DNA of 46,235 bases, taken from Candidatus Levyibacteriota bacterium (GTDB lineage Bacteria > Patescibacteriota > Microgenomatia > Levybacterales > UBA12049). The notes under the pieces were generated by a model. It had not been told where the DNA came from and made no database searches. It saw nothing but the letters and a program-made list of their open reading frames with translations. Below are positions 8,853 through 45,261 of the stretch, in pieces. The translations under genes and the position numbers were made by a program. Position 1 is the first letter of the stretch. Every line of letters begins with the position of its first letter. The stretch covers positions 1 to 46,235 of the forward strand of contig CP066685.1 of NCBI GenBank assembly GCA_016432345.1, given 5' to 3'.

Positions 8853-9335
8853 TTATAACATACTCATTTTTGCAGAAAGGGCATGCGTTATGGCAACGGC
8901 GAGCGCATCTGCAGTATCATCAAGTTTTGGCACACTATCTAATTTGAGTAATATCTTTACCATCTGTCCAATCTGATTTTTTTCTGCCCTGCCATAACCG
9001 GTTAAAGCCATTTTTACTTGCAGCGGCGTATATACCGAAACTGGTAAATTATGCTGCCCTGCGCAAAGCAGTACCACTCCCCGCGCCTGGCCAACAACCA
9101 AGGCTGTTTTACTATTGGTGCCAAAAAATAATTCTTCGATTGCCAAAACATCAGGTTTGTATTTTTTTATAATGCTAGTAATTTCTTTATAAATCTGCAG
9201 CAATCTTTCTTCGTTTTTTTGCTTTGCATCCGTCTCGATACAACCATAACTGTGAACTGTGAACTGTGAACTGTGAACTTTTACGATCCCCCATCCCATT
9301 CTTCCTATTCCCGGATCAATTCCTAAAATAACCAT
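8853..9335 (-). CDS. ruvC: Crossover junction endodeoxyribonuclease RuvC
   Basis: ILGIDPG, AIEELFF, DDTADALAVA. Confidence 0.97.
   Translation of the reverse strand: MVILGIDPGIGRMGWGIVKVHSSQFTVHSYGCIETDAKQKNEERLLQIYKEITSIIKKYKPDVLAIEELFFGTNSKTALVVGQARGVVLLCAGQHNLPVSVYTPLQVKMALTGYGRAEKNQIGQMVKILLKLDSVPKLDDTADALAVAITHALSAKMSML
9248..9279 (+). repeat. (AACTGTG)4 heptamer tandem repeat inside ruvC
   Basis: Four exact copies plus AACT; encodes 'VHSSQFTVHS' in-frame. Confidence 0.95.
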
Positions 9336-9377
9336 AGCAGGTAGATTATACCATTCAATTATGGTATACTACTCTTT

Positions 9378-10106
9378 ATGTCAAAGAGACCAACACTCAA
9401 GGTAGAAAAACGAACTGTTTTAGGCGAAAACGTTAAAAAACTCCGAAAGACTGGGATTTTCCCCGCCAACATCTACGGCAAAGACATTAAATCTCTTGCT
9501 GTCCAAGTTCCCTACAAAGATTTTGAAGCCGTGTACAAAGACACAGGTGAAACAGGTCTTGTTGATCTGCAAGTAGACGGACAAATTCGCCCAGTCCTTA
9601 TTCATAACGTCCAAAAAGACCATCTTACAAAAACTCCCCTACATGCAGATTTTTACCAAGTAAACTTGAAAGAAAAAGTAAAAACCATGGTTGCTGTTGC
9701 CACTATTGGCGAACCAAAAGCAGTTACCGATAAACTTGGACTTTTAATGCAAACCCTTCATGAAATCGAAGTTGAAGCTCTTCCTGCCGATTTACCAGAA
9801 AAAATCGAAATCAACATCGAGCATTTGGCAAATGTTAATGATCAAATTACTATTGCTGACATTAAAACACCAACTGGTGTTACTATTTTAACCGATCCAG
9901 GACAAGTTATTGTAAAAATTGTAGAACTTGTTACTAAAGAAGCAGAGGCAGAAGCAAAAGCAGAAGCTGCTGCTGCAGAAGCTGCCAAGGCCGAGCTTGC
10001 TCCTGCCGAAGAAGGAGCGCCAGCCGAAGGTGCCGCCCCCGCTAAAAGCTCTGGCGAGCCAAAAGGAGAAAAACCCGCAGAAGCACCAAAAGAAGAATCA
10101 AAATAG
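9378..10106 (+). CDS. rplY: 50S ribosomal protein L25/Ctc
   Basis: 'LRKTGIFPANIYG', 'LHADFYQV', Ala/Glu-rich C-terminal tail. Confidence 0.95.
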   Translation: MSKRPTLKVEKRTVLGENVKKLRKTGIFPANIYGKDIKSLAVQVPYKDFEAVYKDTGETGLVDLQVDGQIRPVLIHNVQKDHLTKTPLHADFYQVNLKEKVKTMVAVATIGEPKAVTDKLGLLMQTLHEIEVEALPADLPEKIEINIEHLANVNDQITIADIKTPTGVTILTDPGQVIVKIVELVTKEAEAEAKAEAAAAEAAKAELAPAEEGAPAEGAAPAKSSGEPKGEKPAEAPKEESK

Positions 10107-10541
10107 TTTTTTAAGCCTTTGTCCCTCTTCAAAATTCGGATCAAGCAAAAACACCTTATCTAAATACATTTTTGCTTTTTCTTTATTACCTAATTGATAC
10201 TCTAAAACCGCTAACTGAAAATACCCATCCCGATAATTTTTGTATTTATTTATCACCTTTTCCCAATATTCAACCTTTAAAATTAACTCTTTCCGCTTGA
10301 CCTCTTCTAATTTCTTGTCCTGAAAATGCTTATATGTCTGTATGCTCGAAATCACAAACATTATAACCAACAATAAAGCTATAAATCCTCCTATAATCCA
10401 TTTCCAGAAAGTTTTATCAAAAAAAGATTTTGCGGGAATAAATCGGTAAATACTCGGGAAATTAACCTGGTTTTTCTTTTTTTCAGGCTCAACCTCTTTC
10501 TTTTTTCGTTTAAAAAATTTAAGCGGTTTTATTTTGGCCAT
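10098..10541 (-). CDS. Membrane-anchored TPR-like protein
   Basis: One TM segment 'WIIGGFIALLLVIMFVISSI' plus a TPR-like helix pair 'YFQLAVLEYQLGNKEKAKMYLDKVFLLDPN'. Confidence 0.7.
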   Translation of the reverse strand: MAKIKPLKFFKRKKKEVEPEKKKNQVNFPSIYRFIPAKSFFDKTFWKWIIGGFIALLLVIMFVISSIQTYKHFQDKKLEEVKRKELILKVEYWEKVINKYKNYRDGYFQLAVLEYQLGNKEKAKMYLDKVFLLDPNFEEGQRLKKLF

Positions 10542-12598
10542 GCAGATACCATTATAGACTCTTTAGCCCCAAGGCGCTTATATATCTCCTCTGTCACAAA
10601 TGGCATAAAAGGATGAAGCAACTGCAAAAGAATAGCGTATAGCGTATAGAGAATAGTATAAGAATTTTCGTCGAGGCGGTTTTTGACGTCTTCGATATAA
10701 ACATCGGCAAACTCGTGCCAGATAAATTCGTAGAGCCTCTCTGCGGCAAAATTAAACTGATAGTTATCAATATATTTTGTTATATCCCCTATTAGTTTTT
10801 CAATTTCTTGAATCATCTTTTTATCATTCTCATGCTTTTCATGTTTTAATAATTCCCCATTATTCACCTGCCGTTTCATTTCAATAAATCGTCCTATATT
10901 CCATAATTTATTAGTAAACTTTCTCGCAGCATCAAGTTTTGGATAAGAAAGACTCTGATCATTTCCCGTTGCGTTTCCATACACCAAAGCAAATCTTACT
11001 GCGTCCGCGCCATATTGCTCAACCAGTTCCAATGGATTTACTACATTCCCCTTAGATTTACTCATCTTCTTACCATATGGATCGTTAACAATCCCATGAA
11101 ATAGCACATTTTTAAATGGTATTTTCCCTGTTCTATACATACTCATCATAACCATTCTTGATACCCAAGCTTTTAAAATATCATAAGCAGTTTCCATAAC
11201 GCTTGTTGGATAAAACTTTTCAAAATCACCTGGTTTTGTCGTCTGTAATGTTACGTATGGCCATTGACTCGATGAAAACCAAGTATCAAATGTGTCTGTA
11301 TCCTGCTCCCATTCTTCTCCTTTTGGCGCCTCCCCTTCTGTTACCACCCATTCTCCTGTTTTTTTATTTTTCCAAGCAGGAATTCTAATCCCCCACACAA
11401 TTTGGCGAGAAATATTCCAATCGCGCAAATTCTCCAGCCATTGAAAATAGATGTTTTCAAAATTTTTGGGGAAAATGCGAATTTTACCTTCTTTTACAAC
11501 TTCTATTGCTTCTTTTTTTAACTTATCTACCCTCATAAACCATTGCTCTTTGGGTAATGGCTCAAGCACTGATTTACATTTGTAACAAAGGTTTAGGCGC
11601 GTCACGTAGTTTTCATCAATTTTCTCAATCAACTCTTTTTGCTGCATTTCCTCCACAATAGCTTTCCGCGCCTGTTTAACAAAGAGGCCCGCAAATTTTC
11701 CAGCATGCTGATTTAGCTTGCCATCAAAATCAATCACCTGCTTCATGGACAAATGATGCCTTTTTCCTGTTTCGAAATCGGCAAAATCATGGGCTGGTGT
11801 AATTTTTACTACTCCTGTCCCAAAATTTGGATCAACCGATTCATCGGCAATTACTTTTATTTTTGCTTTTCCTAAAACTGTTTCTATATCTATCTCTTGT
11901 CCAATATACTGTTTATACCGCTTGTCATCTGGATTAACTGCTACCGCAGTATCACCAAATTTTGTCTCGGGTCTGGTGGTGGCTAAAACCAACGAGCCAT
12001 ATTTTATGTAATACAAAGGCGCTTGACGTTCTTCATGCGCCACTTCCAAATCAGAAAAAGATGTGCCATCAACAGTGCAGTAATTTACCAAACGATAATC
12101 GCGGTAAATAAGACCTTCGTCAAACATTTTTTTAAATGTTTTATAAACCAATTTGGTAATATCTTTGTCAAGAGTATATTTTTCCCGACTCCAATCCAGA
12201 GAAAACCCAAGTTTTCGCAATTGATTTTGAATTCCTCCCCGATGATCTTCCACATATTCCCAAATCATTTTATAAAGCGTTTCCTGGTCGTAATCGAGTC
12301 TCGACTTACCTTCGAGCTTTAACTTTTTTTCAAACACAAACTGCGTTTCTATACCTGCGTGGTCAGTTCCAGGAAACCACAAAGCAGCATCACCAAGCAT
12401 CCTATGATAACGGATTAAAATATCCTCTACTGTAAACATGGCGTGGCCAAAATGAAGCGCGCCATTGGCATTTGGCGGTGGCAAAATTATGGTATATGGT
12501 TTGCCGTTTGGGTTGACTTCGGGCTTAAAATAACCTTTCTCTTCCCACTCTTTATAAATTTTTTCCTCAACGTCTTTGTGATTATAAACTTTATCCAT
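10529..12598 (-). CDS. valS: Valyl-tRNA synthetase (short form)
   Basis: PPPNANGALHFGH (HIGH-type), DWNISRQIVWG, DTFDTWFSS, KMSKSKGN; ends at 'SAWPK'. Confidence 0.97.
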   Translation of the reverse strand: MDKVYNHKDVEEKIYKEWEEKGYFKPEVNPNGKPYTIILPPPNANGALHFGHAMFTVEDILIRYHRMLGDAALWFPGTDHAGIETQFVFEKKLKLEGKSRLDYDQETLYKMIWEYVEDHRGGIQNQLRKLGFSLDWSREKYTLDKDITKLVYKTFKKMFDEGLIYRDYRLVNYCTVDGTSFSDLEVAHEERQAPLYYIKYGSLVLATTRPETKFGDTAVAVNPDDKRYKQYIGQEIDIETVLGKAKIKVIADESVDPNFGTGVVKITPAHDFADFETGKRHHLSMKQVIDFDGKLNQHAGKFAGLFVKQARKAIVEEMQQKELIEKIDENYVTRLNLCYKCKSVLEPLPKEQWFMRVDKLKKEAIEVVKEGKIRIFPKNFENIYFQWLENLRDWNISRQIVWGIRIPAWKNKKTGEWVVTEGEAPKGEEWEQDTDTFDTWFSSSQWPYVTLQTTKPGDFEKFYPTSVMETAYDILKAWVSRMVMMSMYRTGKIPFKNVLFHGIVNDPYGKKMSKSKGNVVNPLELVEQYGADAVRFALVYGNATGNDQSLSYPKLDAARKFTNKLWNIGRFIEMKRQVNNGELLKHEKHENDKKMIQEIEKLIGDITKYIDNYQFNFAAERLYEFIWHEFADVYIEDVKNRLDENSYTILYTLYAILLQLLHPFMPFVTEEIYKRLGAKESIMVSAWPK
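10633..10660 (+). repeat. TAG-heptad array inside valS (antisense strand)
   Basis: tagcgta|tagcgta|tagagaa|tagtata; the coding strand gives 'YTILYTLYA'. Confidence 0.8.
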
Positions 12599-12627
12599 AC
12601 AGTTATTTTAACATTTACCTTATCCTC

Positions 12628-12655
12628 TTGACAAATCATACAAAAACTGTATAAT
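12628..12655 (+). promoter_or_regulatory. Sigma70 promoter of the RelBE-like TA operon
   Basis: TTGACA (12628-33), 16-nt spacer, TATAAT (12650-55); inverted repeat ATACA-N5-TGTAT at 12638-52. Confidence 0.8.
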
Positions 12656-12664
12656 TGTATTACT

Positions 12665-12955
12665 ATGCAAAGAATCGTTGTGCAAGTTCCTATGAGCCGT
12701 GAATTAAAAGAAAAAGCAGAGATTGTATCTTCTGATTTAGGATTCTCTTCTATACAAGAAGCAATCCGTGTGCTTTTAACCAAGCTTTCTAAAAAAGAGT
12801 TTCGCTTAAAAGTAGAGGAGAATAATGAGCAGCCTAGTAAATATTTACTTTCTGCAATGAAACGGGCACGAAAAGACAGGCTTGCTGGAAAAGCATCTCC
12901 TGTTTTTGATAATGTTGAAGATAATCTTAAATACCTCGATGAGCAGGGTATATGA
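12665..12955 (+). CDS. Type II antitoxin (RelB/DinJ-like)
   Basis: N-terminal RHH-like segment, acidic C-terminus, ATGA overlap with the toxin gene. Confidence 0.75.
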   Translation: MQRIVVQVPMSRELKEKAEIVSSDLGFSSIQEAIRVLLTKLSKKEFRLKVEENNEQPSKYLLSAMKRARKDRLAGKASPVFDNVEDNLKYLDEQGI

Positions 12956-13239
12956 AAATTCAATACCACCCTGCTTTCCTTAAAAATCTTAAAAAACTAG
13001 ACGTAAAAATCCGCAAAAGCTTTAGAAAAAGAATCACAGTCTTTTTAAAAAATCCTTATGATTCCGAGCTGAATAATCACGAACTAAAAGATGAATATCA
13101 AGGATACCGAAGTATTGATATTACTGCTGACTATCGAGCAATATATGAGGAAATAAACGAAGACGGTAAATTTATTACCTATTTTTTCCTTATTGGAACC
13201 CATGAACAACTTTACGACAAGACGCTTAACAAGAATTAA
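12952..13239 (+). CDS. RelE/YafQ-family mRNA interferase toxin
   Basis: 'FLKNLKKL', 'LNNHELK..YQGYRSIDITADYRAIY', 'IGTHEQLY'. Confidence 0.9.
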   Translation: MKIQYHPAFLKNLKKLDVKIRKSFRKRITVFLKNPYDSELNNHELKDEYQGYRSIDITADYRAIYEEINEDGKFITYFFLIGTHEQLYDKTLNKN

Positions 13240-13313
13240 AAACATCTCTTTTCCCGAGTATTTCCCGATCTATTCCCGATCATTACTTCATTACTTACTG
13301 ATATAATACGTTT

Positions 13314-15028: not shown

Positions 15029-15031
15029 ATG

Positions 15032-16066: not shown

Positions 16067-17374
16067 ATGGCAACAGAAGACAATAATCCATGGAAAAGGT
16101 CTCAAGAAAAGCTGCGGGCTATTGCCAAAAAAATACATCTTGACCCACTGCTTTTAGCCGAGCTTGAAGAGCCAGACAGAATCATCACCACTTCTCTTCC
16201 TATTCGCCTCGATAACGGCAACATCCAAACATTTACCGGCTACCGCGTCCAACACAACAACGTCCTTGGCCCATACAAAGGCGGCATCCGTTACCACCCA
16301 CAGGTTTCGATGGACGAAGTAAAGGCATTGGCCTTTTGGATGACTGTAAAATGTGCTGTTATTAACGTGCCGTTTGGCGGTAGCAAGGGCGGTATTACGG
16401 TTGATCCAAAGTCGCTGTCTGAAAATGAATTACGAGAACTAACTTATGTATTTTCCAGAAAGCTAGCGCGTGCCATTGGGCCAGAAATAGACGTTCCGGC
16501 GCCAGATGTTAATACCAATCCAACAATTATGGGCTGGCTTGTTGAAGAATACGAAAAACAAGTCAAAAGTCAAAAGTCAAAAGTCAAAACTTCTTTAACA
16601 GATAATCAATTAAAAGCTGTTGTTACCGGCAAACAGGTCGACCAAGGCGGATCACTAGGCCGAACCGAAGCAACAGGACTTGGCGGATTCTACGCCCTAA
16701 TGCATGTCTTAAAAAAGCTTGGGTTAAATCCAAAAGATATGACTGTGGCTGTCCAGGGATTTGGCAATGTTGGCTACTATGCCGCAGAGTTTTTCTATAA
16801 AGAGGGTATAAAAGTTGTCGCAGTATCTGATTCCAAAGAGGGTATCTATGTAAAAGAAGGACTTAATCCAGATAAAACCTTAGCGTGCAAAAAAGAAAAA
16901 GGTATGCTTTCAGGCTGCTATTGTATTGGATCAGTCTGTGATGTAAAAAATGGCAAACAAATTACCAATAAAGACTTGCTTGAACTTCCGGTCGATATTT
17001 TAGTGCCGGCCGCCCTTGAAAATGTGATCACAGCAGAAAATGCAGCTAATACAAAAGCAAAAATTATTCTGGAACTTGCCAACGGACCAATAACAATCGA
17101 GGCCGATACAATTCTTGCACAAAAAGATACTATGGTAATTCCCGACATCCTTGCCAATTCCGGCGGGGTATGTGTTTCTTACTACGAATGGTATCAAAAT
17201 ATGCATAACGAAAAATGGACAAAAGAAGATGTATTTAAAAAACTCAAAAAACAGATGGAAGAAGCAACTAACGATGTATGGACAATAAGTAAAGAAAAAG
17301 GGGTATCACTTCGCGACGCAGCATATATAGTAGCGCTCCAAAGAATACAAAACGCATGGAAACATGAACATTGA
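16067..17374 (+). CDS. gdhA: Glu/Leu/Phe/Val dehydrogenase (glutamate dehydrogenase-like)
   Basis: GPYKGGIRYH, GGSKGG, DVPAPDV, QGFGNVG, ELANGP, PDILANSGGV. Confidence 0.92.
   Translation: MATEDNNPWKRSQEKLRAIAKKIHLDPLLLAELEEPDRIITTSLPIRLDNGNIQTFTGYRVQHNNVLGPYKGGIRYHPQVSMDEVKALAFWMTVKCAVINVPFGGSKGGITVDPKSLSENELRELTYVFSRKLARAIGPEIDVPAPDVNTNPTIMGWLVEEYEKQVKSQKSKVKTSLTDNQLKAVVTGKQVDQGGSLGRTEATGLGGFYALMHVLKKLGLNPKDMTVAVQGFGNVGYYAAEFFYKEGIKVVAVSDSKEGIYVKEGLNPDKTLACKKEKGMLSGCYCIGSVCDVKNGKQITNKDLLELPVDILVPAALENVITAENAANTKAKIILELANGPITIEADTILAQKDTMVIPDILANSGGVCVSYYEWYQNMHNEKWTKEDVFKKLKKQMEEATNDVWTISKEKGVSLRDAAYIVALQRIQNAWKHEH
16560..16589 (+). repeat. (AAGTCAA)4 heptamer tandem repeat inside gdhA
   Basis: Four exact copies; encodes 'VKSQKSKVK' in-frame just before 'AVVTGK'. 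Confidence 0.95.
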
Positions 17375-26452: not shown

Positions 26453-27802
26453 TTATACCAGGTCTTTGTTATTCCTGCTAAAACAGAGACTCAAAACAAC
26501 AGCAAATAATATTTGTCCTTGTTGCAATGTTAAAAAGTAATGATCAAACAAACCCAGAATTAGAATAGTAGTAAGTAGTATGTAGCATGTATTAAGGGGT
26601 AAATTATTTCTCGTCTTGATACTTAATACTGCCCTTAGAAGAAACCACAAAAACATTCCTAACCCCAGCAGGCCTGTTTCTGCTACAATAAGAAAAAAGA
26701 TATTGTGTACCGGTTGAAGCAATGTAAAAAGAGAACCTGTATTGTTTTTTTGATAATAGGGAAGTGTCGGTAAAAAATTATACAGGCCAACTCCAAAAAC
26801 AGGATGATCTTTTACCATTGTTATTGCAGTATTTGCAAGTTCAATTCTTCTAACAATCGCTTCGTCCATTGTTGAAATATTGAAAAAACGAGAAGACAAA
26901 AAAAACATAAAAATGCTACCAATAAATACCAATATTGCCGCGCTTATAATTTGAAATGAATTTTTAATGACATAATTTTTAATAAAAAGTGCCACCATCA
27001 GAAACCATAAAATAATAGCAACGCGACTCATTGTAAACAAAAGAGCAATAGAACCAATCAATAAAGAAGTAAAAAAATAAATTTTTTTAATTTTGATACT
27101 TGACTGGAAATTGAAAATTATTGTTGTCATCGCGATGATTAAATATCCAGCCAAAACATTTGGGTGAGGAAATGTAGCGTATGGCCGCAAAACAAGTTTT
27201 CCATCTAACGAGGCATTGGCAATTCCTGAAGTTTGTGATGTAAATGTTCTTTCTCCAAAAAAATAAAATATTCCTCCAATTGACCCTTGTTTAACAAACT
27301 GCAAAATTGCCAAACCCGACTCAAACAAAACTCCCATACAAAATATAAATGCAAGTATTTTGAAATCCTGAGCAGTCTTTATTGTTTTTGCGGCAACAAA
27401 TCCCAAAAAAACAAATTCTAATAATTTGAGCAATCCATAAAATCCTGCCATTGGGTTTTTGGAAAAAAGTATACCAAACAGAAGAACTAATAAAAATAAA
27501 ACAATTTGCAATTTGAAATTTGAAATTTGAAATGAATTTTTAATATTTAAATTTTTAAATTTTTTTTGTTTGATTGAAAATTGAAAATTGAAAATTGAAA
27601 ATTTAGAAACTTGAATAAAAATGTCAAAGACCCACAAAACCAATAAAATAATAATTAAAACATCAGTAAAATACAGGGTGGGGGAAAGATAATCAATTCT
27701 TAATCCCGAAACATAAGACCAAGACGGCCAAAAATGTTTACCAAGTTGAACGGGAAGAAAAAGAATAATTGTATAAAAAATAAACTTTTGAAGTGTTTTC
27801 AA
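26453..27802 (-). CDS. O-antigen ligase (Wzy_C/WaaL-like) membrane protein
   Basis: About 11 TM segments; 'RPYATFPHPNVLAGY', 'TMSR', 'HPVFGVG', 'PVHNIF', 'FDHY'. Confidence 0.88.
   Translation of the reverse strand: MKTLQKFIFYTIILFLPVQLGKHFWPSWSYVSGLRIDYLSPTLYFTDVLIIILLVLWVFDIFIQVSKFSIFNFQFSIKQKKFKNLNIKNSFQISNFKLQIVLFLLVLLFGILFSKNPMAGFYGLLKLLEFVFLGFVAAKTIKTAQDFKILAFIFCMGVLFESGLAILQFVKQGSIGGIFYFFGERTFTSQTSGIANASLDGKLVLRPYATFPHPNVLAGYLIIAMTTIIFNFQSSIKIKKIYFFTSLLIGSIALLFTMSRVAIILWFLMVALFIKNYVIKNSFQIISAAILVFIGSIFMFFLSSRFFNISTMDEAIVRRIELANTAITMVKDHPVFGVGLYNFLPTLPYYQKNNTGSLFTLLQPVHNIFFLIVAETGLLGLGMFLWFLLRAVLSIKTRNNLPLNTCYILLTTILILGLFDHYFLTLQQGQILFAVVLSLCFSRNNKDLV
26569..26596 (+). repeat. Four-heptad TAG unit inside the ligase gene (antisense)
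   Basis: tagtaag|tagtatg|tagcatg|tattaag. Confidence 0.7.
27504..27614 (+). repeat. Heptamer arrays (ATTTGAA)3 and (ATTGAAA)4 inside the ligase gene
   Basis: Exact copies at 27511-27531 and 27573-27600, with degenerate flanks; encode 'FQISNFKLQI' and 'FSIFNFQFSI'. Confidence 0.92.
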
Positions 27803-32974: not shown

Positions 32975-35242
32975 TTATTTTATTGTTCCAAAACCAACTA
33001 AAGTATAACGTTGATTTTTAACCTCCCAATCGACAATTGGGTAAAGTTGTATTTTTGCATTAGTATTAGCGTCGTATGTTTCTAAAAAACCGTTTCCTCT
33101 AGGGTCAATGCTTTTAAATTTAATTATAGCAACATGCTCATTACCTGTAAAAATACCTGGTTGTGATTCAGAAAAAATTGTAAAACCAGGGGTAATAGTT
33201 GACAAGATATTTTTGTGATCATCATTAAGATAATCAAGATGTGTATATCCGGGAGTGCTTTTCCAAAAATTCCTCATGGAAATTACTGCTTGGTGATCTA
33301 ATCCAAGACCAGTTTTACCAGCTAGATTAAAGGCATCAATAACAAGATTTGTACACCAATAAAGGCCACGTGGACTAGTATTTATAAATTCTCCTGTTCG
33401 TGTTGTAGCAGTATAGGAGCCATTAGTAATATTTGCGGTCATCTTATTAAAATCACCAATTGGTCCTTCTTCTAAAACATCATTTATTTTGCTTGTCCAG
33501 TCAAGTATGTTTTTCGCATCTCCAGTTACAGGTAGCTGCGCTGTTAAAGCTGGCTGTTTTTGCTGGCAGTTTTGAAAATCTTTCCATACCTCATCACAAT
33601 AATTAAAAGATCCATACTCACATCTGGTAAAATAGCTGGTAATAACATTAGTAATCTCGTCTTTTGTTGGTGATTGAGTTAATCCGTCAGTTTTGAGTTT
33701 TTGGGCTGCGATATCTAAATTTTCAGTGATACTACATAGATTTTCTCCTTCATGGTAAATGTCTAATAGTTGCATAAGTCCAATTGCTGTAGCATCTTTG
33801 CCACCAATTTTTTTCTCGTCATCGGTACATTTTGGATCTTCACCATTTTTCCTTTCCACTCTATTAGCATTTATTACACAGAAGGTTTCGCCACGATTAC
33901 AAAAAGAATTGTCTTTAATTTCAATATCAGTATCAGTTTTATTAGCGGCGAAGCTTTGATTTTCATGCATAGCAACGCTGGCAAGGACAGATGAAGGAAT
34001 TCCTGCTTTGTTTGCGGCATCAGTAATCCATCCTTGCAAAATAGAGCTTTTAATTGGTCTTAATGAATTAGATTTAGTAAATTGACAGCTTGTTACATTT
34101 GATGATCCGCCTGCTTCATTTGGGGAGGCTTCGAGAGTTGTTGCTTCTCCTCCAATCACTCCAAAGACAATAGCAAATGTAATAACAGAAATAATAAGAA
34201 TCGGTATAATGACTGCAGCAGCAGATTGTATTGCGGCATTTTTAGCAAGGTTAGTAAGCGGATTACCGCTTAATCCATTTCGTATGGCATTTCCAATACC
34301 TCCTCCTGGTATTGGAGGCCTTCTTATTGATAGTGGGTTAGGGGGTATGCCTCTGGAATTTGTCGGAGAAGATATGCGGGGAATGGGAGGTGAGATAATT
34401 AGTGATTGCTGTTGTAAAATTGGTTGTGGTGGTTTTGGGGATGGTTGTAGTACGACTCTTTCTTCAACCCGTGCAACCGCTACTTTTATTTCTTCGTGTT
34501 TTGTAGTATATGCTGTTGCTTTTTCTGGATGTTGTTCTGCAAATCGTTCCCAATGAGCAGTTTCTACCTGCTTTTTAATTTGTTCAACGGTGATTCCTGG
34601 ATTTTGTTTTGTGAGTAATTCATGGCGTACTTGTGTGTGTAATTCAATTTCCTCCTGGTGCCAAATAAATGTCGGGTCCTGACGAGGATCATCATAGACT
34701 TTTTTTCTTTCTTCACTATATTGCTTCCATAACGTTTCATGTTTTGTTTTAAATTCTTCTTCGGTATTGCTAAACAATGTCGGGGCGCTGGGGTTTTCTA
34801 AAGAGCCGTAGCGGTAATCAATCCACTCTTTGCTGCTTGTGTCTTTTTCAGGATGATCTTTAAGCCAGGCATTAGCTTTTTCATTAAGGATGCGTTTAAA
34901 GTGAGGGTCTTCTTCTAAGATTTTTGGATGTTCTCGAGAAAAAAGTCCTCCTAAAAATCCCAGCGCAGCAAGAACATCTGGAACATTATGGTTGTCAACA
35001 TGCCCTGTTTGTTTTATTTGTTTTTCTTCATGTTGTTGTCGGAGATAAAAATACGCATCTTGGATTTCTTTGCCAACCCAAATATCGGTATTAATATTTC
35101 CATGCGTGTTTGCCCAGGCGACGAATTCTTGTTTAAGTACGAAATGCGAAACATCTGGATGTTGACTTACAAACACAAACCACCTTTTTGCTAATTTATC
35201 AGCCTCCTGCGATTGTGTTTTAATATAATTTTCAATGTTCAT
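32975..35242 (-). CDS. Membrane-anchored peptidoglycan hydrolase-like protein (SLT-like plus CHAP/NlpC-like domains)
   Basis: Central TM helix; 'AGIPSSVLASVAMHEN...AIGLMQL' (lytic transglycosylase-like); 'YWCTNLV...EHVAII' (Cys/His pair). Confidence 0.65.
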   Translation of the reverse strand: MNIENYIKTQSQEADKLAKRWFVFVSQHPDVSHFVLKQEFVAWANTHGNINTDIWVGKEIQDAYFYLRQQHEEKQIKQTGHVDNHNVPDVLAALGFLGGLFSREHPKILEEDPHFKRILNEKANAWLKDHPEKDTSSKEWIDYRYGSLENPSAPTLFSNTEEEFKTKHETLWKQYSEERKKVYDDPRQDPTFIWHQEEIELHTQVRHELLTKQNPGITVEQIKKQVETAHWERFAEQHPEKATAYTTKHEEIKVAVARVEERVVLQPSPKPPQPILQQQSLIISPPIPRISSPTNSRGIPPNPLSIRRPPIPGGGIGNAIRNGLSGNPLTNLAKNAAIQSAAAVIIPILIISVITFAIVFGVIGGEATTLEASPNEAGGSSNVTSCQFTKSNSLRPIKSSILQGWITDAANKAGIPSSVLASVAMHENQSFAANKTDTDIEIKDNSFCNRGETFCVINANRVERKNGEDPKCTDDEKKIGGKDATAIGLMQLLDIYHEGENLCSITENLDIAAQKLKTDGLTQSPTKDEITNVITSYFTRCEYGSFNYCDEVWKDFQNCQQKQPALTAQLPVTGDAKNILDWTSKINDVLEEGPIGDFNKMTANITNGSYTATTRTGEFINTSPRGLYWCTNLVIDAFNLAGKTGLGLDHQAVISMRNFWKSTPGYTHLDYLNDDHKNILSTITPGFTIFSESQPGIFTGNEHVAIIKFKSIDPRGNGFLETYDANTNAKIQLYPIVDWEVKNQRYTLVGFGTIK

Positions 35243-35249
35243 CTTCTCC

Positions 35250-35277
35250 CTTAATACATACTACTTGCTACTAACTA
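35250..35277 (-). repeat. Four-heptad TAG unit providing the virB4 stop codon
   Basis: tagttag|tagcaag|tagtatg|tattaag. Confidence 0.85.
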
Positions 35278-37564
35278 CTTTTTCTTCCTGTTTTTGTAGA
35301 ATTTCTTGTGGGTTAGAGGTAATAAGTTCATGCTCAAAAGGGGCGGCGACAATTTTTATGGCCACATGATTTTGCCCGGCAAAAAAAAGCCCCTCTCCAA
35401 TATTTGAGGCCAAAAGCAATTGTCTTTCTCCTTGGGAAAGAAAAAAGGTTTTACTAACAATATCAATTTCCGATGCGCCTTGTTTAAGAAGAATTTGTAA
35501 TGAAGAATTAGACAAAACAGCTTTTCCATAATCGGTGGATAAGAAATCTTCCACATCTTGTGTGGCTGTTGTTAAACCTAAATAGTATTTTCGAGCCCTT
35601 TTGGCAATGCCATAGACAAAGGAGGCGCTGTCTTCGTATTTCATCATGTACCAGGCCTCGTCCAAAATAAGCAGGCGTTTTTTAAGATTTTTTCGAATGC
35701 GCGTCCAGACGAAATCCAAAATAATATGCATGGTAATTGGTCGAAGCTGGTCTTCAAGTGTTTTAAGAGAAAACACGGTTAACGGATTTGTGATATCTAT
35801 ATTTGATTGTTGGTTAAATATGCCAGCCAGACTTCCTTTAATAAATTTTTCCAGTCTTAGCGCTAGTTCTTTAGCGTTTTCATCTTCCATACCCAAAAGC
35901 ACTTTATACAAATCTTCCATCAAAGGCGGCTCTTTATTTTGAGTTTTAGGGTCTTGGGTAATACCTTTTTGTTGATATGTTTGTACTAAAGCCCTATCTA
36001 AAATTGCATCGTGTGAAGCGTCAAGGTTGCCCATAACAATTTTTAAAAGCGCGTGTAAGGAGAGAATTTTAAGCCCCAGTTCATTTTCGCCCTCTGTGTA
36101 AAGTCCAGACAAATCAAACGGATTTATTTTTATTGGAGAAGAGGGAGTAAAACTTAAATATTCACCTTGTAAGGCTTTAGTTAAATTTTCGTATTCTCCT
36201 TCTGGGTCAAGAATTATTACTTCTGTTCCCAACATAAATTGTCGCAACACCTCAAGTTTAATAAAGTACGATTTTCCAGATCCTGATTTTCCAAAAACCA
36301 CCTCGTTGGCATTTTCCAGAGAAAATCTGTCAAAAACAACTAAAGAGCTGTTTTGTAAATTAACACCATATAATATTCCTTTATCTTGGGTAAGCATGGC
36401 CGAGGTAAAAGGAAACATGGAGGCAAGAGATGTTGTGTCCATATTGCGGGTCATAAAAAGTTTATCCTGACCTAGGGGGATAGTTGTTTTAAGCCCTTCT
36501 TCTGTTTGCAGTGTAGTCGGCTTGGCAAGAACAAGCAAGCTGGCTAGAGTGGATAGAAGGCGTTTGACAGCGCTATCTAAGTCCTGTTCGTTTTCGGAAG
36601 TTAGAGTAACATAAAGACTAAAAAGAAAAAATCGCTCCAGTCCTTTGGCCAATTCTTCCTGCAGTCCCAGCGCGTCTTCCAGAGCTGCTGTTACTGTGGG
36701 ATCAACAACTTTACCTTTTTCTGCTTGGCTGGAGATGGTTACTTCCATTTCGGCGATTTTACGCCGAAGATCGGAAAGAATATCGGGAGATGAGGCAGGG
36801 TAAATAAACATCGCAATATCAAGTTCATGATCAAAATCAATTAAAGGCGAGAGCCAATTAGAAGAAACATAGCGTGGATAGCCGACAATAAAAAAAGTTC
36901 TGGCAATTTTTGTGCCAATCTTAATAGATTTAAAATCAACTTCAATAGAAGAAGGAGCAATAAGGTCAACAACAGAGTTTTTAGGATTTTGAGTGTTTAA
37001 GGCTGTGCTATGCTCATCGTTGTAAATGCTGTAGAAAATTTTCATAAGGCTTTCTTTTTCGGCAATTTTACTTCGAAGCCCCAAGCGTCCAAACTGCGAC
37101 AGCACAGATTCTGCTTTGGTATGCAAAGCCGCCTTGGCAGAAAGAAAAAAATCCTCTTTTTTAAGAGTAGTTCCGACAACACTTTTCTCCAGAGATGAGT
37201 AAGACAAGACAATGTAAAATGTTTTATCAAGTACTGTATTTATCTTAATAAGGTCTTGAACAAATAAGCGGTATTTTTTAAGATAATCAGTTTGTTTTTC
37301 TGCATCAAGACGTTTTATGTAAGATGAGACATCAACGCGTTTGTTGCGAATAACAATTTGGACCGGAAAAGAAAGCGAATTAAGAAACGAGGCAAAAGCA
37401 AAAATTTTTGCTTGTTTTTCCTCGGGGGAGAGAAGTGAAAAATTTGTGGCCTGTACTTCTATAAGCAAACAAGCATTGCCGTTTGTTAAAAGTACGATAT
37501 CCTCTTGAATATCTTTTATTTCAGTAAACTTTTGAGTGGACGCGCGAATTTTTTGGGCAGCCAT
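35261..37564 (-). CDS. virB4: VirB4/TraC-like secretion ATPase
   Basis: Walker A GKSGSGKS, 'ILDPEGEY', 'INPFD', Walker B 'LILDEAW', 'KRARKY'. Confidence 0.9.
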   Translation of the reverse strand: MAAQKIRASTQKFTEIKDIQEDIVLLTNGNACLLIEVQATNFSLLSPEEKQAKIFAFASFLNSLSFPVQIVIRNKRVDVSSYIKRLDAEKQTDYLKKYRLFVQDLIKINTVLDKTFYIVLSYSSLEKSVVGTTLKKEDFFLSAKAALHTKAESVLSQFGRLGLRSKIAEKESLMKIFYSIYNDEHSTALNTQNPKNSVVDLIAPSSIEVDFKSIKIGTKIARTFFIVGYPRYVSSNWLSPLIDFDHELDIAMFIYPASSPDILSDLRRKIAEMEVTISSQAEKGKVVDPTVTAALEDALGLQEELAKGLERFFLFSLYVTLTSENEQDLDSAVKRLLSTLASLLVLAKPTTLQTEEGLKTTIPLGQDKLFMTRNMDTTSLASMFPFTSAMLTQDKGILYGVNLQNSSLVVFDRFSLENANEVVFGKSGSGKSYFIKLEVLRQFMLGTEVIILDPEGEYENLTKALQGEYLSFTPSSPIKINPFDLSGLYTEGENELGLKILSLHALLKIVMGNLDASHDAILDRALVQTYQQKGITQDPKTQNKEPPLMEDLYKVLLGMEDENAKELALRLEKFIKGSLAGIFNQQSNIDITNPLTVFSLKTLEDQLRPITMHIILDFVWTRIRKNLKKRLLILDEAWYMMKYEDSASFVYGIAKRARKYYLGLTTATQDVEDFLSTDYGKAVLSNSSLQILLKQGASEIDIVSKTFFLSQGERQLLLASNIGEGLFFAGQNHVAIKIVAAPFEHELITSNPQEILQKQEEKVVSSK

Positions 37565-37569
37565 AAAAT

Positions 37570-38583
37570 TTAACTAAACAAAGCTTTACGCAGTTCTTCT
37601 CGGGCATCAATGCTTGTTGCTTCAATTGGCCCAATAATTTCGCCAGTCATGGTGAGTTCTAGGGCGTCAAATTTTTGCTTTCCGCTTGGATCATCAAATT
37701 CAATGGTATATACGCCGTTTAAAAGAGGAGTAGCCGAGGCAAATTGGCCGAGCTGATTTGTTTTAAACGCCCTAACAGGATTGTTGTCTTTGTCTTTTAC
37801 TTCAACTAGAATATTCGACAAAATATTGCCCCTGGCATTTTTAACAATTCCAATTAATACATTAGGCGAATCAGAAACAGGCAGTCCCACCGCATTTGTT
37901 AGGCTTTTTGCCGGCACTTTTTTAACAATAGCTTGCGTAACTTGTATTGGCGGAGCAGGCAGAGGTTCTGTTTTAACAGATGGTTGTTGGATTTGCGGCG
38001 GCGCAGTTTTTTGCTGCGCAAGCATTTGCTTAAGCGCAAGAAGCTCTTTTTCGATACGTTCTTTTTCCAAGCGGGTAGTTTGCAATTCTTGTAGAATAGA
38101 CTGATAGTTTGTTTGTTCTTTTTGTGGCTGCTGCTGGATAATTTGTTGGGTAGGCTGAGAGATAACATCGGCTTTTTTTGATTCTTCCGGCTGTTTTTTA
38201 GAAATTTGAAGAACAGGAGGTTTTGGTGTTGAGTTTGCTGGGGACGCAGTTGTTGCAATGGGTTTTAGCATGGCTTTTGTTTGTAATTGTGGAGAGTTAG
38301 ATAGCTGATATATATATTGGTTTGGAGTAAACAGCGCTTTAATAAAGTTAATAATCATAACATCCATTGGTCGTCCCTCAATTGGTAAAAAAGCTAAACC
38401 AAAGCCGAAAAAACCAAAAATAAAAGAAATCGGCAACTTAATAATTCCAGGCATGGGAGAAATATATACAACCCAGGCCATAACAACCCCGCTAATTAAA
38501 TAGGAAAATTGCTTAACAGTCATGTTGCCAATCAGTTTAAACTGAAAGCCGGTAACATCTTGTGGAATAGGATGATTTTCCAT
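37570..38583 (-). CDS. prgI: PrgI-family (VirB3-like) membrane protein with a C-terminal carboxypeptidase-regulatory-like domain
   Basis: 'HPIPQDVTGFQFKLIGNMTVKQF', two TM segments, 'GRP'; C-terminal 'KTNQLGQFASATPLLNGVY'. Confidence 0.85.
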   Translation of the reverse strand: MENHPIPQDVTGFQFKLIGNMTVKQFSYLISGVVMAWVVYISPMPGIIKLPISFIFGFFGFGLAFLPIEGRPMDVMIINFIKALFTPNQYIYQLSNSPQLQTKAMLKPIATTASPANSTPKPPVLQISKKQPEESKKADVISQPTQQIIQQQPQKEQTNYQSILQELQTTRLEKERIEKELLALKQMLAQQKTAPPQIQQPSVKTEPLPAPPIQVTQAIVKKVPAKSLTNAVGLPVSDSPNVLIGIVKNARGNILSNILVEVKDKDNNPVRAFKTNQLGQFASATPLLNGVYTIEFDDPSGKQKFDALELTMTGEIIGPIEATSIDAREELRKALFS

Positions 38584-38589
38584 ATACTT

Positions 38590-38624
38590 AAGCGTATAGC
38601 GTAAAGAAAATAGCGTATAGTTAG
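38590..38624 (+). repeat. TAGCGTA-type heptad array downstream of the four-helix-bundle gene
   Basis: aagcgta|tagcgta|aagaaaa|tagcgta|tagttag. Confidence 0.85.
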
Positions 38625-38626
38625 AA

Positions 38627-39004
38627 CTAAATGCTAGACGTTGTTACCTCCTTTCTTTTATAAACCATAACATATAGCATTTTTATAGCTTCATTTAATA
38701 ATGACTCAGCGTTTTTAAATTTTTCTTCAACTGTAAAATGAAGCTTTTTGGAGATAATTAATTGTGTTTCGAGTTCTAATGCTGATCCATATGCTATTGC
38801 GTAGAACTGTAGATATTCCTTGTGCGATCTCCTTCTGTATCCTTCTGCAATGTTTGATGGGATAGATATAGAAGATCTCCGAATTTGAGAAATGATTCCA
38901 TATATTTCCTCTTTTGGAAAAAGAGCAGTTAGTTGATATATGCACTTAACTAATTCAATAGATTTTTGCCAAACGATTAAATCTTTGTATGATGTTATTT
39001 TCAT
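38627..39004 (-). CDS. Four-helix-bundle protein (23S rRNA IVP / Avd-like family)
   Basis: 'SYKDLIVWQKS', 'FPKEEIYG..SQIRRS..SIPSNIAEG', 'AYGSALELETQL'. Confidence 0.93.
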   Translation of the reverse strand: MKITSYKDLIVWQKSIELVKCIYQLTALFPKEEIYGIISQIRRSSISIPSNIAEGYRRRSHKEYLQFYAIAYGSALELETQLIISKKLHFTVEEKFKNAESLLNEAIKMLYVMVYKRKEVTTSSI

Positions 39005-39011
39005 AATCTCA

Positions 39012-39088
39012 ATTAACTAAATACTATACGTTATGGACTATACGCTTGTAATAAAAACTATACGCTAAACGCTATTCTCTATACCCTA
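39012..39088 (-). repeat. TAGCGTA-type heptad array upstream of the four-helix-bundle gene (inverted relative to the downstream array)
   Basis: Minus strand: tagggta|tagagaa|tagcgtt|tagcgta|tagtttt|tattaca|agcgta|tagtcca|taacgta|tagtatt|tagttaa. Confidence 0.85.
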
Positions 39089-39140
39089 TGTTTATATAAT
39101 GTGAAAAATCTGATTTCAAGATTATCAAAGTAGGTCAAAA

Positions 39141-39170: not shown

Positions 39171-39177
39171 GTCGATA

Positions 39178-39215: not shown

Positions 39216-39245
39216 CAAAATAACAAGGAGGGGGGGGTGATAGTT

Positions 39246-39886: not shown

Positions 39887-39892
39887 TAAAAC

Positions 39893-39922
39893 GGGGTACA
39901 AAATTGGGAATTTTTGCGAAAA
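39893..39922 (+). repeat. 30-bp direct repeat, right copy
   Basis: ggggtacaaaattgggaatttttgcgaaaa. Confidence 0.95.
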
Positions 39923-39924
39923 TC

Positions 39925-41139: not shown

Positions 41140-41145
41140 AATACG

Positions 41146-41173
41146 ATCATAGCACTTGATATTTATTTGTCAA
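41146..41173 (-). promoter_or_regulatory. Sigma70 promoter for 39925..41139
   Basis: Minus strand TTGACA (41173-68), 16-nt spacer, TATGAT (41151-46), then 6 nt to ATG. Confidence 0.75.
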
Positions 41174-41192
41174 TCAATTACTATTTTTCTAT

Positions 41193-44100: not shown

Positions 44101-44216
44101 ATGCCCTTAATCAATTGCGTGCTGGAATTGACAGTAATGACATTTCGTATTCCGGACTTTACGCTGGTTTTAGAAATATAATAAACAGATTGGGAGAAGA
44201 AGCAATAGCGGCATAA
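41193..44216 (+). CDS. Large hypothetical protein (Gly/Ala-rich hydrophobic hairpin, coiled coil, internal repeat)
   Basis: 1007-aa uninterrupted ORF; no family recognised. Confidence 0.75.
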   Translation: MADLNVAPEHLVPAEGAVKPAGATAVAPESSKGREFLKSEFVKEFSTGTTLNKGKVEVPGKIEGKSVYISPETEAKYTNFLMDYLPHVYTALQRNPSLRDNPLFQLDIPLVEALTTDGKADLKKIDEFFDDAKGWILATEVITRFASQAKRVSGLVSEISPQGRRTATTEGLRVRMGDARFLNKLWRDRIVPGFMKIRANPVLQVFAGYNISGVLGIGAAAGFGAPPEVVIGGAAAIAGAEGLGMVGAGAVRSFKNSGTEIVLSTNIGVFNNIKNNPAEKAYVQALLGVDIDHLEEDPAMPGRLRQIPEMTPVTNRDADDIRDEALRLIYARRDFFKDIGISAKRADTLPEETIWRNTVVTEGFERVATVWEEEMIKAFKPDSGGVLDKWKRNEEDPDFCRDTTIIGSSPDYVNNLDTAGNIERFNRARQEVMMRITMEHVGQTLNGQAINRTKTALKGKIKAIEDGGDKEKRKAELTKQKAELQREKDRLTPQQSKIDAYKEKAAVVNTGDRDFKREFRSDVAAGRDIEGTITRIDGEIDAYEITIRDRKDNNDANINAAITVEIGKLPPVALTGNPKEDQPMQRRREERETSIGREIRKNYEEQTTLLTAQLNSRQTQVERLLTLQQQDQEYRQNVRANDDELLADAKEDLGIMEAAYKAYSKFTAAPPAGWNISEVILLSQNPQELMVTLNGFYAKDLAAGVAAVNRRGWPVDQNNVASNRERVIFAIAEIKARRLEAEDPQTSVRGPDYTQVTGWTITEDQLRILSENALNSLINDRWAATGGTEGWQPADNTDPANITRLRNAVAESRNRLLVRYIAVVAEKTADFDAQIKALDEASLEIDAETTEEQLKPFRLTAALLDRQAEVFTKSSEIKTETAKYIDLARIGAADTTYSQAERGANQPKGYYEIMDVLFDFQKRESGDRGAYFQEISNFIPPQKLAELLNYAFDLGLVSGGPAAARVNINNALNQLRAGIDSNDISYSGLYAGFRNIINRLGEEAIAA

Positions 44217-44219
44217 AAT

Positions 44220-44579
44220 ATGAAAATTACAACAAAAAGTATTATTAAAGCGCTTCCCTTTGAAGAGCAATTTAGATTAGATTTAATAAATAAGCTTGAT
44301 TCTTTATCTGCTGATCAAAAATTTACCATCGAGCAGATTCTTTGGGATGCGTACTTTTCTTTGTATGATCTTAAGATGGATACAAATCTTAAACTGGCTT
44401 TGGAGCGTGCCAAAAACAACGAAGAGACACTAGATAAAGATTTCTATAAACGTGTGGAAGCGCAAACAGAGAAAGAGATGGAAAATCAGGCAGTTGAAGC
44501 AACGGAGAGGGTAGATTTGACTGCGGCGCGAAAGGCCATGGAGCTGATTGTTAAAGAAATTCAAGAAAGTAAAAAATAA
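44220..44579 (+). CDS. Hypothetical helical protein
   Basis: 119 aa; 3-nt gap from the upstream gene and 11-nt gap to the next (operonic). Confidence 0.7.
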   Translation: MKITTKSIIKALPFEEQFRLDLINKLDSLSADQKFTIEQILWDAYFSLYDLKMDTNLKLALERAKNNEETLDKDFYKRVEAQTEKEMENQAVEATERVDLTAARKAMELIVKEIQESKK

Positions 44580-44590
44580 AAACTAAGTGA

Positions 44591-45250
44591 ATGGGGTTTC
44601 TGATACTGTTATTTGCTGAAATTATTGTTCTTTTTTTCCTCTCTCGCATAGTTGCCCGATTGTTATTGCAGATGTTCTCTATTCGTCTGATCGCGCTTGT
44701 TTTTCTTCCCGGCATTGTAGTTCACGAATTGGCGCATTTGCTTGTTGCAAATTTACTTTTGGTAAAAACAGGCCACATCGAATTTGTGCCGCAAATTAAC
44801 AAGCATGGTGTAAAACTTGGCAGTGTTGAAATTATTAAAACCGATCCAATAAGAAGAATGATGATTGGTTTTGCGCCAGTTTTTGTTGGTATAGCAATGC
44901 TTTTTAGCATTCTTTACGCAATTATCCAAAAAGATGTGATTGCCAAAAACATTACTTCCCAGCCACTACAAGTAGTTTTTTATATTATGGCTTTTTATTT
45001 TCTTTTTGTAATTAGCAATACCATGTTTTCCAGTTCTAAAGATATGGAAGGAACAGCAGAAGTTTTACTGGTTGTTTTAGGAATTGCGGTGGCGTTATAT
45101 GCGGTTGGTGTTCGTGTTGATTATTCTTTGCTGCAGGGCATTCTGGTGAGTCAGGAAGGCATCCTGCAAAAGGCAGTCATGCTTTTATCTTTTCCTATTG
45201 TTATAGACCTGGGAGTGTGGGGAATAACAAAAGTAGTGAGTAGCAAGTAG
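44591..45250 (+). CDS. M50-like membrane zinc metalloprotease
   Basis: 'LPGIVVHELAH' in a TM context, 'MIGFAP', multiple TM segments. Confidence 0.8.
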   Translation: MGFLILLFAEIIVLFFLSRIVARLLLQMFSIRLIALVFLPGIVVHELAHLLVANLLLVKTGHIEFVPQINKHGVKLGSVEIIKTDPIRRMMIGFAPVFVGIAMLFSILYAIIQKDVIAKNITSQPLQVVFYIMAFYFLFVISNTMFSSSKDMEGTAEVLLVVLGIAVALYAVGVRVDYSLLQGILVSQEGILQKAVMLLSFPIVIDLGVWGITKVVSSK

Positions 45251-45261
45251 TATGTATTATG
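45234..45261 (+). repeat. Four-heptad TAG unit providing the M50 gene stop codon
   Basis: tagtgag|tagcaag|tagtatg|tattatg. Confidence 0.85.

Follow-up and report, generated by a model that had tools for sequence, protein, structure and literature searches.

Intervening sequences (IVSs) of 23S rRNA genes, as in Coxiella burnetii and Leptospira, carry a gene for the pentameric four-helix bundle PF05635/S23p in the loop of a long stem that contains tandem heptamers (PMC4990558). In the Coxiella IVS the stem has three or four tandem GACAGAT units, the number varies by strain, and the element is possibly mobile; genome-level coupling of the S23p family and heptamer arrays is not described (PMC4990558). 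Rehm et al. reported that heptameric repeats are over-represented in bacteria, with no detailed literature on them, and described 70–75 inverted heptamer pairs in Xanthomonas without naming a protein partner (PMC4692102). Heptanucleotide long simple sequence repeats of prokaryotes are attributed in that paper to Mrazek 2007. Here we analyze the period-7 tandem arrays and the single PF05635 cassette in the first 46,235 nucleotides (the window) of the 762,565-bp contig CP066685.1, which is the only contig of a Levybacteria genome of the candidate phyla radiation (GCA_016432345.1, hereafter G000). Such arrays are nearly confined to PF05635-bearing genomes, which points to an undescribed repeat-plus-protein system. 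We give a probability of roughly one half to the reading that the window arrays are members of a single class of heptamer-array elements, present across Microgenomatia and coupled to PF05635 genes. A literature search returned no paper linking PF05635 to heptamer arrays at genome level or to arrays within genes.

The window cassette shares with the rRNA IVS a PF05635 gene in the loop of a long heptamer-containing stem, the open reading frame (ORF) being enclosed by inverted-repeat arms in the predicted fold. Unlike the IVS, it is not inserted within a 23S rRNA gene helix and lies between protein-coding genes, and its arm family is found outside the cassette too, in gene-less hairpins and in single arrays that are translated. 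The Xanthomonas GGGAATC, Nostoc GGGGA(C/T)T and cyanobacterial short tandemly repeated repetitive (STRR) sequences show the same excess at period 7, few units per array, single or convergent inverted pairs, and gain and loss between close species (PMC4692102). Those repeats are reported to be intergenic, whereas most arrays here are translated within genes, essential ones included, and many unit families coexist. Xanthomonas itself encodes an S23p protein (PDB 2gsc), to which PMC4692102 does not connect its heptamers. As in the repetitive extragenic palindrome (REP)/REP-associated tyrosine transposase (RAYT) system (REPIN), a genome-specific hairpin family matching the flanks of a single-copy gene has expanded, and gene-less copies are far more numerous; unlike in REP/RAYT, the product of the flanked gene is a small non-enzymatic four-helix bundle instead of a Y1 transposase, the arms consist of tandem heptamers, and single arms lie in frame in genes. 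Rickettsia palindromic elements are likewise short repeats that sit in frame in protein-coding genes, some of them essential, and appear in the protein as extra loops. These palindromes measure 100–150 bp, lack tandem substructure and have no protein gene associated with them, in contrast to the arrays of 30–55 nt with concerted evolution of the unit seen here. Finally, Avd of diversity-generating retroelements (DGRs) is a related pentameric, basic four-helix bundle that binds nucleic acid and is tied to localized rewriting of coding sequence; unlike in DGRs, no reverse transcriptase, template repeat or adenine mutagenesis was found here.

Arrays in the window were detected with Tandem Repeats Finder (TRF) and a sliding scan, and gene identities were assigned with Pfam. 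TRF gave ten period-7 rows, and the sliding scan gave nine clusters at period 7 compared to 0–3 at periods 5, 6 and 8–12. The period-7 arrays listed by a preliminary description, made from the sequence alone, were recovered at their sites by these two methods, with an excess specific to period 7. Pfam confirmed RuvC, tRNA-synt_1, Glu dehydrogenase, Wzy_C, TraG/VirB4-like and 23S_rRNA_IVP; the label "M50" given earlier to ORF 44591–45250 found no Pfam match. The principal features are:

9248–9279, minus strand: heptamer array in ruvC, sense (GTTCACA) x4.6 (TRF 4.6 copies, 100% identity)
10627–10660, minus strand: array in a class-I aminoacyl-tRNA synthetase gene ("valS"), sense CTATTCT CTATACG CTATACG CTATTCT
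16560–16589, plus strand: array in gdhA, perfect (AAGTCAA) x4.3 (TRF 100% identity), encoding KSQKSKVK
27503–27533, minus strand: array in the O-antigen ligase gene, sense unit TCAAATT (TRF 4.4 copies, 95%)
27573–27603, minus strand: second array in this gene, sense unit TTTCAAT, AATTTTC family (TRF 4.4 copies, 100%)
38588–38622, plus strand: left arm of the cassette, AGCGTAT AGCGTAA AGAAAAT AGCGTAT AG, with TAG on the plus strand
38627–39004, minus strand: PF05635 gene (23S rRNA intervening-sequence protein, four-helix bundle), 125 aa, by Pfam
39020–39090, plus strand: right arm of the cassette, interrupted CTATACG / CTAAACG / CTATTCT units, inverted complement of the left arm

Four of the arrays are perfect or near-perfect at 4.3–4.6 copies, namely those in ruvC and gdhA and two in the O-antigen ligase gene. 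The RuvC array is translated within a beta-hairpin (aa ∼19–30; Pfam RuvC), and the gdhA array lies in a surface loop of glutamate dehydrogenase. In the "valS" gene, a core of 2.6 perfect copies (10632–10649) with one degenerate unit on each side (TRF) is located in the anticodon-binding domain of the class-I synthetase (Pfam tRNA-synt_1). The arrays at 27503–27533 and 27573–27603 occupy the N-terminal part of the O-antigen ligase (Wzy_C) gene; a period-8 array, (AATTTTTA) x3.9 at 27535–27564, lies between them.

The PF05635 gene is the only copy in G000. Its product, of family PF05635/TIGR02436, covers positions 1–105 of the 106-position profile and scores 132.1 bits where the curated cut-off is 33.8 (E = 1.2e-38). 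It also matches XCC0516, a pentameric protein of Xanthomonas (PDB 2gsc; E = 1.5e-22), and, weakly, PF22296 (bAvd). The final codons and the TAG stop fall in heptamer units. The cassette is situated between a PrgI-like gene and a MazE/Fic pair. Its arms are degenerate (TRF rows 38591–38620 at 65% and 39058–39089 at 76%) and pair with each other when the 521-nt transcript is folded to minimum free energy (z = -4.4). Both arms belong to the ACGCTAT family, the most abundant heptamer family of G000, in keeping with the proposed link of arrays to this gene. Best-matching PF05635 genes in 30 relatives also usually lie between inverted heptamer arrays, with a unit that varies by genome. At least six gene-less ACGCTAT hairpins occupy intergenic spacers of G000 (54336, 67818, 210989, 242246, 733304 and 744696; fold z-scores -2.5 to -6.7), the one at 733304 exactly between pheS and pheT. 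Four of them have the identical variant-unit order CTAWACG CTAATTT CTAGACG CTAAACG and are therefore copies of one element. The right arms at 211007, 242309, 733384 and 744714 stop 3–8 nt before the downstream ATG; no Shine-Dalgarno sequence is visible at these four junctions, where the hairpin occupies the entire intercistronic spacer.

Genome-wide, G000 contains 84 period-7 arrays of at least 3.5 copies in 762 kb, mostly of ∼4.5 units. Perfect runs of at least three units number 31 at period 7, compared to none in the shuffled genome and none at periods 8–15. The lengths of perfect arrays are bimodal, with a background at 14–20 nt, almost none at 21–29 nt and 27 arrays at 30–36 nt. The period-7 arrays are confirmed as real and far above chance. 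They occur in two settings, as intergenic inverted pairs (hairpins) and as single translated arrays within genes, of ∼4.5 and occasionally ∼7.5 units. By context, 66 of 83 are single arrays within ORFs and 12 are in inverted pairs. G000 thus has the excess of tandem 7-nt units over other periods that is typical of heptanucleotide and STRR repeats; it has neither their broad, slippage-type spread of copy number (∼4.5/∼7.5 units here) nor, with 66/83 in ORFs, their mainly intergenic location. More than 40 unit families are present, the largest being ACGCTAT (CTATACG/CTAAACG/CTAGACG) with 17 of the 84 TRF arrays, followed by AATTTTC with eight. The ACGCTAT pattern has 35 matches in G000 and at most 10 in any of 40 relatives.

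The preliminary description had proposed that period-7 density follows the number of four-helix-bundle genes across genomes. Each of 40 relatives has between 0 and 20 PF05635 genes, and we compared arrays and PF05635 in 17 genomes, using ∼100 kb from each of 16 relatives and the whole of G000. Arrays per 100 kb were 0, 0, 0, 1, 0, 9, 0 and 11 in the eight PF05635-less genomes and 37, 17, 3, 2, 41, 31, 8, 16 and 11 in the nine PF05635-positive genomes (Spearman rho 0.77, p = 3e-4). The pattern persisted when only single in-ORF arrays were counted. No perfect array was seen in the eight sampled PF05635-less genomes, and synthetase neighborhoods held 0–1 arrays per 20 kb in all six PF05635-less genomes.

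A class-level test of 301 genomes used (AATTTTC)3 and its reverse, at one mismatch or fewer, as a proxy for arrays, and PF05635 at E ≤ 1e-5. Arrays were detected in 113 of 204 PF05635-positive genomes (55%) and in 12 of 97 negative genomes (12%; odds ratio 8.8, p = 2e-13), with mean proxy matches of 3.27 and 0.31, respectively. All 17 informative taxonomic families had more arrays in their PF05635-positive genomes (within-family permutation p ≤ 5e-5). In several array-rich genomes the listed arrays were mostly on contigs other than those of the listed PF05635 genes, and so are mostly not cassette arms. Strong periodicity at sites orthologous to the G000 in-gene arrays was likewise found at 20 of 147 sites in PF05635-positive genomes and 0 of 59 in negative ones (p = 0.0012). 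Copy number of Fic genes served as a control and showed a weak relation to arrays, with rho 0.21 (within-family p = 0.06) compared to 0.50 (p = 2e-4) for PF05635; generic mobile-gene load was rejected as a confounder. The proposed correlation was therefore upheld in both the 17-genome and the 301-genome sample.

The congener G001, a sister species, was compared over 852 kb. It has 126 period-7 arrays, among which AAAACTC/AAAGCTC dominates with 35 and ACGCTAT has only three. At the site upstream of the PrgI-like gene that it shares with G000, G001 carries a different, non-alignable PF05635 cassette with CTCAAAA arms. In both genomes the expanded heptamer family is the family flanking the resident PF05635 gene. 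The AAAACTC copies have a common internal order of variant units (CTCAAAA CTCAAAT GTCAAAA CTCAAAA CTAyAaC TCAAAAC ...), which identifies them as dispersed copies of one ∼55-nt arm. Thirteen arm copies fall within ORFs, where their stop-free strand is read into peptides of KLKTQNS type. Compared to G000, the G001 inserts measure 16 aa in a 571-aa protein, 14 aa in a 336-aa protein, 11 aa in a protein aligning with triose-phosphate isomerases (TIM), 6 aa in methionine aminopeptidase and 5 aa in each of two others; outgroups are without two of these in-frame inserts. The dominant family of G001 is thus that of its cassette arms, with arm copies in frame where G000 has none.

Turnover of arrays between species is fast, by gain, by loss and by rewriting. 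For 47 alignable in-gene arrays of G000, G001 has an array at the same site in 19 cases, no array in 13 where the stretch is absent, and a stretch of equal length without an array in 15; the unit is identical in 4–5 of the 19 shared sites and different in the remainder. Of the two O-antigen ligase arrays within 27503–27603, G001 has one in the same place with another unit and lacks the other. Position 548048 has CTATACG x4.6 in G000 versus TTAATAC x4.3 in G001. Junction 67818 holds the ACGCTAT hairpin in G000, an AAAACTC-family array in G001 and an empty 11-nt gap in the PF05635-less G015. Copy number in G001 is bimodal at ∼4.5 and ∼7.5 in ORFs, hairpin arms and elsewhere. Since intergenic hairpin arms show both sizes, the quantization is not an effect of reading frame alone, and an explanation from reading frame alone was discarded.

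Within genes, arrays keep their protein positions across genera, often without change of length, and every array copy compared between at least 12 species is in frame. The RuvC site is of equal length in 12 Levybacteria. Its unit is GTTCACA in G000, GTTCAAA in L033, ATTCAAA in L047 and ATTCAAG in G001, and each is uniform over 4.6–5 copies. Because the unit differs between species yet is uniform inside each array, the RuvC array evolves in concert. Three PF05635-less relatives retain only decayed periodicity at this site. The synthetase site at aa 650–660 is also of equal length in all relatives and differs only in its unit (TACTTAA/ATTCTTA-type there). A second synthetase loop (after K-R, aa ∼578) is empty in G000 and holds perfect ATTTACG, GAAATTC and AAGTCAA arrays in three relatives; between aa ∼578 and 600 this loop is hypervariable, with 0–30 extra residues among relatives L031–L059. 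The GdhA array is a loop insertion of 9–12 aa compared to L037 and the Thermococcus structure PDB 1euz.

The preliminary description had read in-gene arrays as scars left by insertion and loss of cassettes. No cassette was found at an in-gene array site in ∼275 orthologous comparisons, which instead revealed same-length replacement and concerted evolution. We rejected the excision-scar model, as no in-gene array alternates with a full cassette and arrays are rewritten at constant length. On the coupled-system reading, the in-gene arrays are instead products of the system that makes the cassette arms.

One intergenic site did show cassette decay. We examined 58 metagenome loci with a PrgI-like gene (within L166–L245; relatives at 38–60% protein identity). 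Upstream of this gene, a PF05635 gene was present in 13 loci, directly adjacent and in the same orientation in each, a gene-less period-7 array in four and nothing in 41. L229 has a full cassette. In L195, L194 and L199 the arms are the same, but the gene between them is a remnant that has lost ∼270 nt internally, so that arm pairs can arise from cassettes. The neighboring hairpin has kept its loop, with AGATACT arms in L229 versus AGCGTAT in L195. Alternation of scar and full cassette at orthologous sites, which the preliminary description proposed to look for, accordingly occurred at this intergenic site (L229 versus L195, by internal deletion) and not at in-gene sites. In the window, the PrgI-like gene is part of a type-IV-secretion-like cluster (32975–38583 and 45267–45587) that includes a TraG/VirB4-like ATPase and a type IV secretion system pilin.

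The strand carried by the arrays links both settings. An orientation rule noted at the outset, with the TAG strand antisense within coding sequences and sense at gene ends, held at every site checked. The sense unit is stop-free in 29 of 30 near-perfect in-gene arrays, and arrays whose consensus unit contains a stop are all imperfect, the imperfection avoiding the stop. As 7 and 3 are coprime, three units present all seven codon phases, which excludes a stop-bearing unit as the sense strand; the rule is therefore forced by selection against stop codons. Such selection does not force a stop on the other strand. The antisense unit nonetheless contains a stop triplet in 45 of 51 in-gene arrays (88%), compared to 31% expected for coding heptamers (p = 5e-17), and the arrays have an intrinsic "stop strand". 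Its resemblance to (NNNNTAG)n arms ties the in-gene arrays to the hairpin-arm class.

That heptamer arrays and the four-helix-bundle gene belong together passed every test run; causality, its direction and the underlying biochemistry are an inference. A bolder reading, which we hold less likely than not, is that PF05635 "S23p/IVS" proteins are the trans-acting component of heptamer-array writing, with the pentamer recognizing tandem 7-nt units and promoting their copying, insertion and homogenization. A copying process with a 7-nt register, either templated patch synthesis or slippage, would write and homogenize stretches of ∼30–50 nt, with the PF05635 pentamer as its partner in trans. Binding of the protein to arrays or hairpin arms could favor realignment or copying in this register; five protomers at 7 nt each would cover ∼35 nt, near the modal array size. 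Selection would then retain only stop-free, in-frame products in tolerant loops. Of the mechanism in the preliminary description, the link of arrays to the four-helix-bundle gene survives, while remodeling by scars does not. Nor does its assignment of each heptad family to a specific paralog, as G000 has one PF05635 gene for more than 40 unit families; we dropped the model of one paralog per family on this count.

If this is correct, one system makes both intergenic hairpin cassettes and in-frame, 7-aa-periodic arrays within genes, essential ones included. A single cause would then be at hand for the excess of heptanucleotide repeats in bacteria, cyanobacterial STRR, the Xanthomonas heptamer pairs and rRNA intervening sequences. 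We know of no mechanism for the over-representation of heptanucleotides in many bacteria, of no origin for rRNA intervening sequences, and of no function for PF05635/S23p, a very large family that is among the commonest of bacterial proteins. A testable handle is provided by the presence of PF05635, which predicts repeats (odds ratio ∼9 within one class), and by the identity of the expanded family with the family flanking the gene. The data also show DNA-level rewriting of short stretches in essential proteins (RuvC, tRNA synthetases, glutamate dehydrogenase, TIM and methionine aminopeptidase), each stretch staying internally uniform. Protein evolution of this kind is unusual and is overlooked by gene finders and alignment methods.

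Several observations weigh against coupling to PF05635 or against its action in trans. There is no dose-response, with G039 and G031 having eight and five PF05635 genes and only 2–3 arrays per 100 kb, and arrays occur without PF05635 in G015, G011 and 12 of 97 negative genomes. The class-level measure is a proxy that registers the unit families AATTTTC and CTTTTAA, on either strand and in any context, and taxonomic strata are a rough control for phylogeny. Many of the more than 40 unit families of G000 have perfect arrays, for a single PF05635 gene in the genome, so that sequence-specific action of one protein cannot account for all arrays. To our knowledge no enzymatic activity has been assigned to PF05635, and this analysis identified neither a polymerase nor a nuclease as its partner. 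An AACTCAA array (QNSKLKTQN) occupies the same position of the methionine aminopeptidase gene in G001 (C1:46469) and in the distant G025, of another family (L129, 11768), and is absent in G000 and G010; some "insertions" may accordingly be old with later losses, or parallel. Counts of PF01797 (Y1) genes also co-vary at class level, with rho 0.36 for arrays and 0.50 for PF05635.

The main alternative, which we consider rather unlikely though serious, is that some quirk of the host, in replication or in repair, makes arrays independently of PF05635, through slippage or templated patch repair in a 7-nt register. Cassettes would then be passengers that need heptamer hairpins, and the correlation would run from arrays to gene. 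The imbalance of unit families and PF05635 genes fits this alternative, as do G015 and G011 with arrays and no PF05635, G039 and G031 with PF05635 and few arrays, and conserved protein sites whose units are site-specific (RuvC GTTCAAA) and not those of cassette arms. Cassette arms vary by genome and could be drawn from the locally abundant family. It does less well with the distribution of the gene, since 113 of 125 array-positive genomes (90%) carry PF05635 compared to a base rate of 68%, and perfect arrays number zero in the eight PF05635-less genomes sampled. Dispersed copies moreover keep the variant-unit order of the cassette arm, which local slippage does not yield, and we know of no candidate host factor. 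Improbable, to a greater degree, is that a Y1 (HUH) transposase of IS200/RAYT type mobilizes heptamer hairpins as REP-like elements, with PF05635 as cargo or accessory. Y1 enzymes act on single-stranded hairpins (IS200/IS605, REP/RAYT), and PF01797 genes were present in five of five array-rich genomes tested. Arrays were found in 9% of genomes with neither gene, 21% of the 29 with Y1 alone, 41% of those with PF05635 alone (24 of 58, by the proxy) and 61% with both. Y1 hence raises the frequency from 41% to 61% among PF05635-positive genomes, but has no effect within PF05635-less genomes (p = 0.88), and the joint logistic odds ratio is 6.6 for PF05635 compared to 2.3 for Y1. In G000 the heptamer arms flank PF05635, whereas the only Y1 gene has CCACCTNNNAGGTGG palindromes of its own on both sides. 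Y1 transposase was set aside as the driver given its weaker prediction of arrays and its different flanks, despite the co-variation.

Two further explanations bear on how arrays within genes change. That they are ordinary phase-variable contingency loci, in which gain or loss of one unit switches genes, appears very improbable. Seven is not divisible by three, several arrays are in surface-glycan genes (O-antigen ligase, glycosyltransferases), and heptanucleotide phase variation is described for Haemophilus influenzae HMW promoters and Escherichia coli neuO (PMC2651432, PMC13001214). Against this, arrays are also in RuvC, tRNA synthetases, glutamate dehydrogenase, TIM and methionine aminopeptidase, all copies in at least 12 species are in frame, and sizes are quantized at ∼4.5 and ∼7.5 units and not spread, including in intergenic hairpin arms where frame is irrelevant. 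We regard as barely credible a DGR-like process in which an Avd-like four-helix bundle and a reverse transcriptase rewrite targets from a template repeat. It would agree with the relation of PF05635 to bAvd (the weak PF22296 match) and with ∼30-nt stretches rewritten in place at constant length; no pair of template and variable repeats was found, and whole units change instead of adenine-specific substitutions. RVT_1 (PF00078) reverse transcriptase had no match in the array-rich genomes G000, G001, G009, G010 and G025, which rules out a DGR-type mechanism for G000 unless its reverse transcriptase is very divergent. A heptamer-armed GxxExxY nuclease was likewise eliminated as driver, with no PF13366 match in G000, G001, G009, G010, G015 or G011.

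The Y1/HUH (PF01797) transposase-like gene of G000 (735415–736092, ∼225 aa) lies just after pheT, bracketed by CCACCTTAGAGGTGG / CCACCTCTAAGGTGG palindromes (735358–736133). Palindromes and Y1 genes number five and one in G000 and 24 and six in G001. Together they look like a separate system of REP/RAYT type.

The window also contains three copies of a 28-nt heptad element, AGTAGTNAGTAGCAAGTAGTATGTATTA, with 0–3 mismatches, which are the whole genome's set and lie within one 20-kb stretch of this window:

26567–26594, plus strand: copy 1, antisense, in the 3' part of the O-antigen ligase gene
35252–35279, minus strand: copy 2, sense, at the 3' end of the VirB4/TraG-like gene; weak, from the sliding scan
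45232–45259, plus strand: copy 3, sense, at the 3' end of ORF 44591–45250; weak, from the sliding scan (array 45232–45261)

Copy 1 corresponds to a TRF row at 26567–26596 (4.3 copies, 78% identity). The first TAG of copy 2 is the stop codon of the VirB4/TraG-like gene, and the element fills the spacer to the next gene; this junction is 17 nt long and empty in G001, with ACGCTAA-type arrays in other relatives. Copy 3 supplies ORF 44591–45250 with its last four codons and TAG stop. In two further genomes (L010 and L013), the arms of PF05635 cassettes consist of sequence resembling AGTAGTNAGTAGCAAGTAGTATGTATTA. Beyond the right arm of the window cassette, the ribosome-binding region of the MazE-like antitoxin gene, AAGGAGGGGGGGGTGATAGTTATG at 39226–39238, contains a run of eight G, which may be a slippage-prone homopolymer; the Fic/Doc gene follows.

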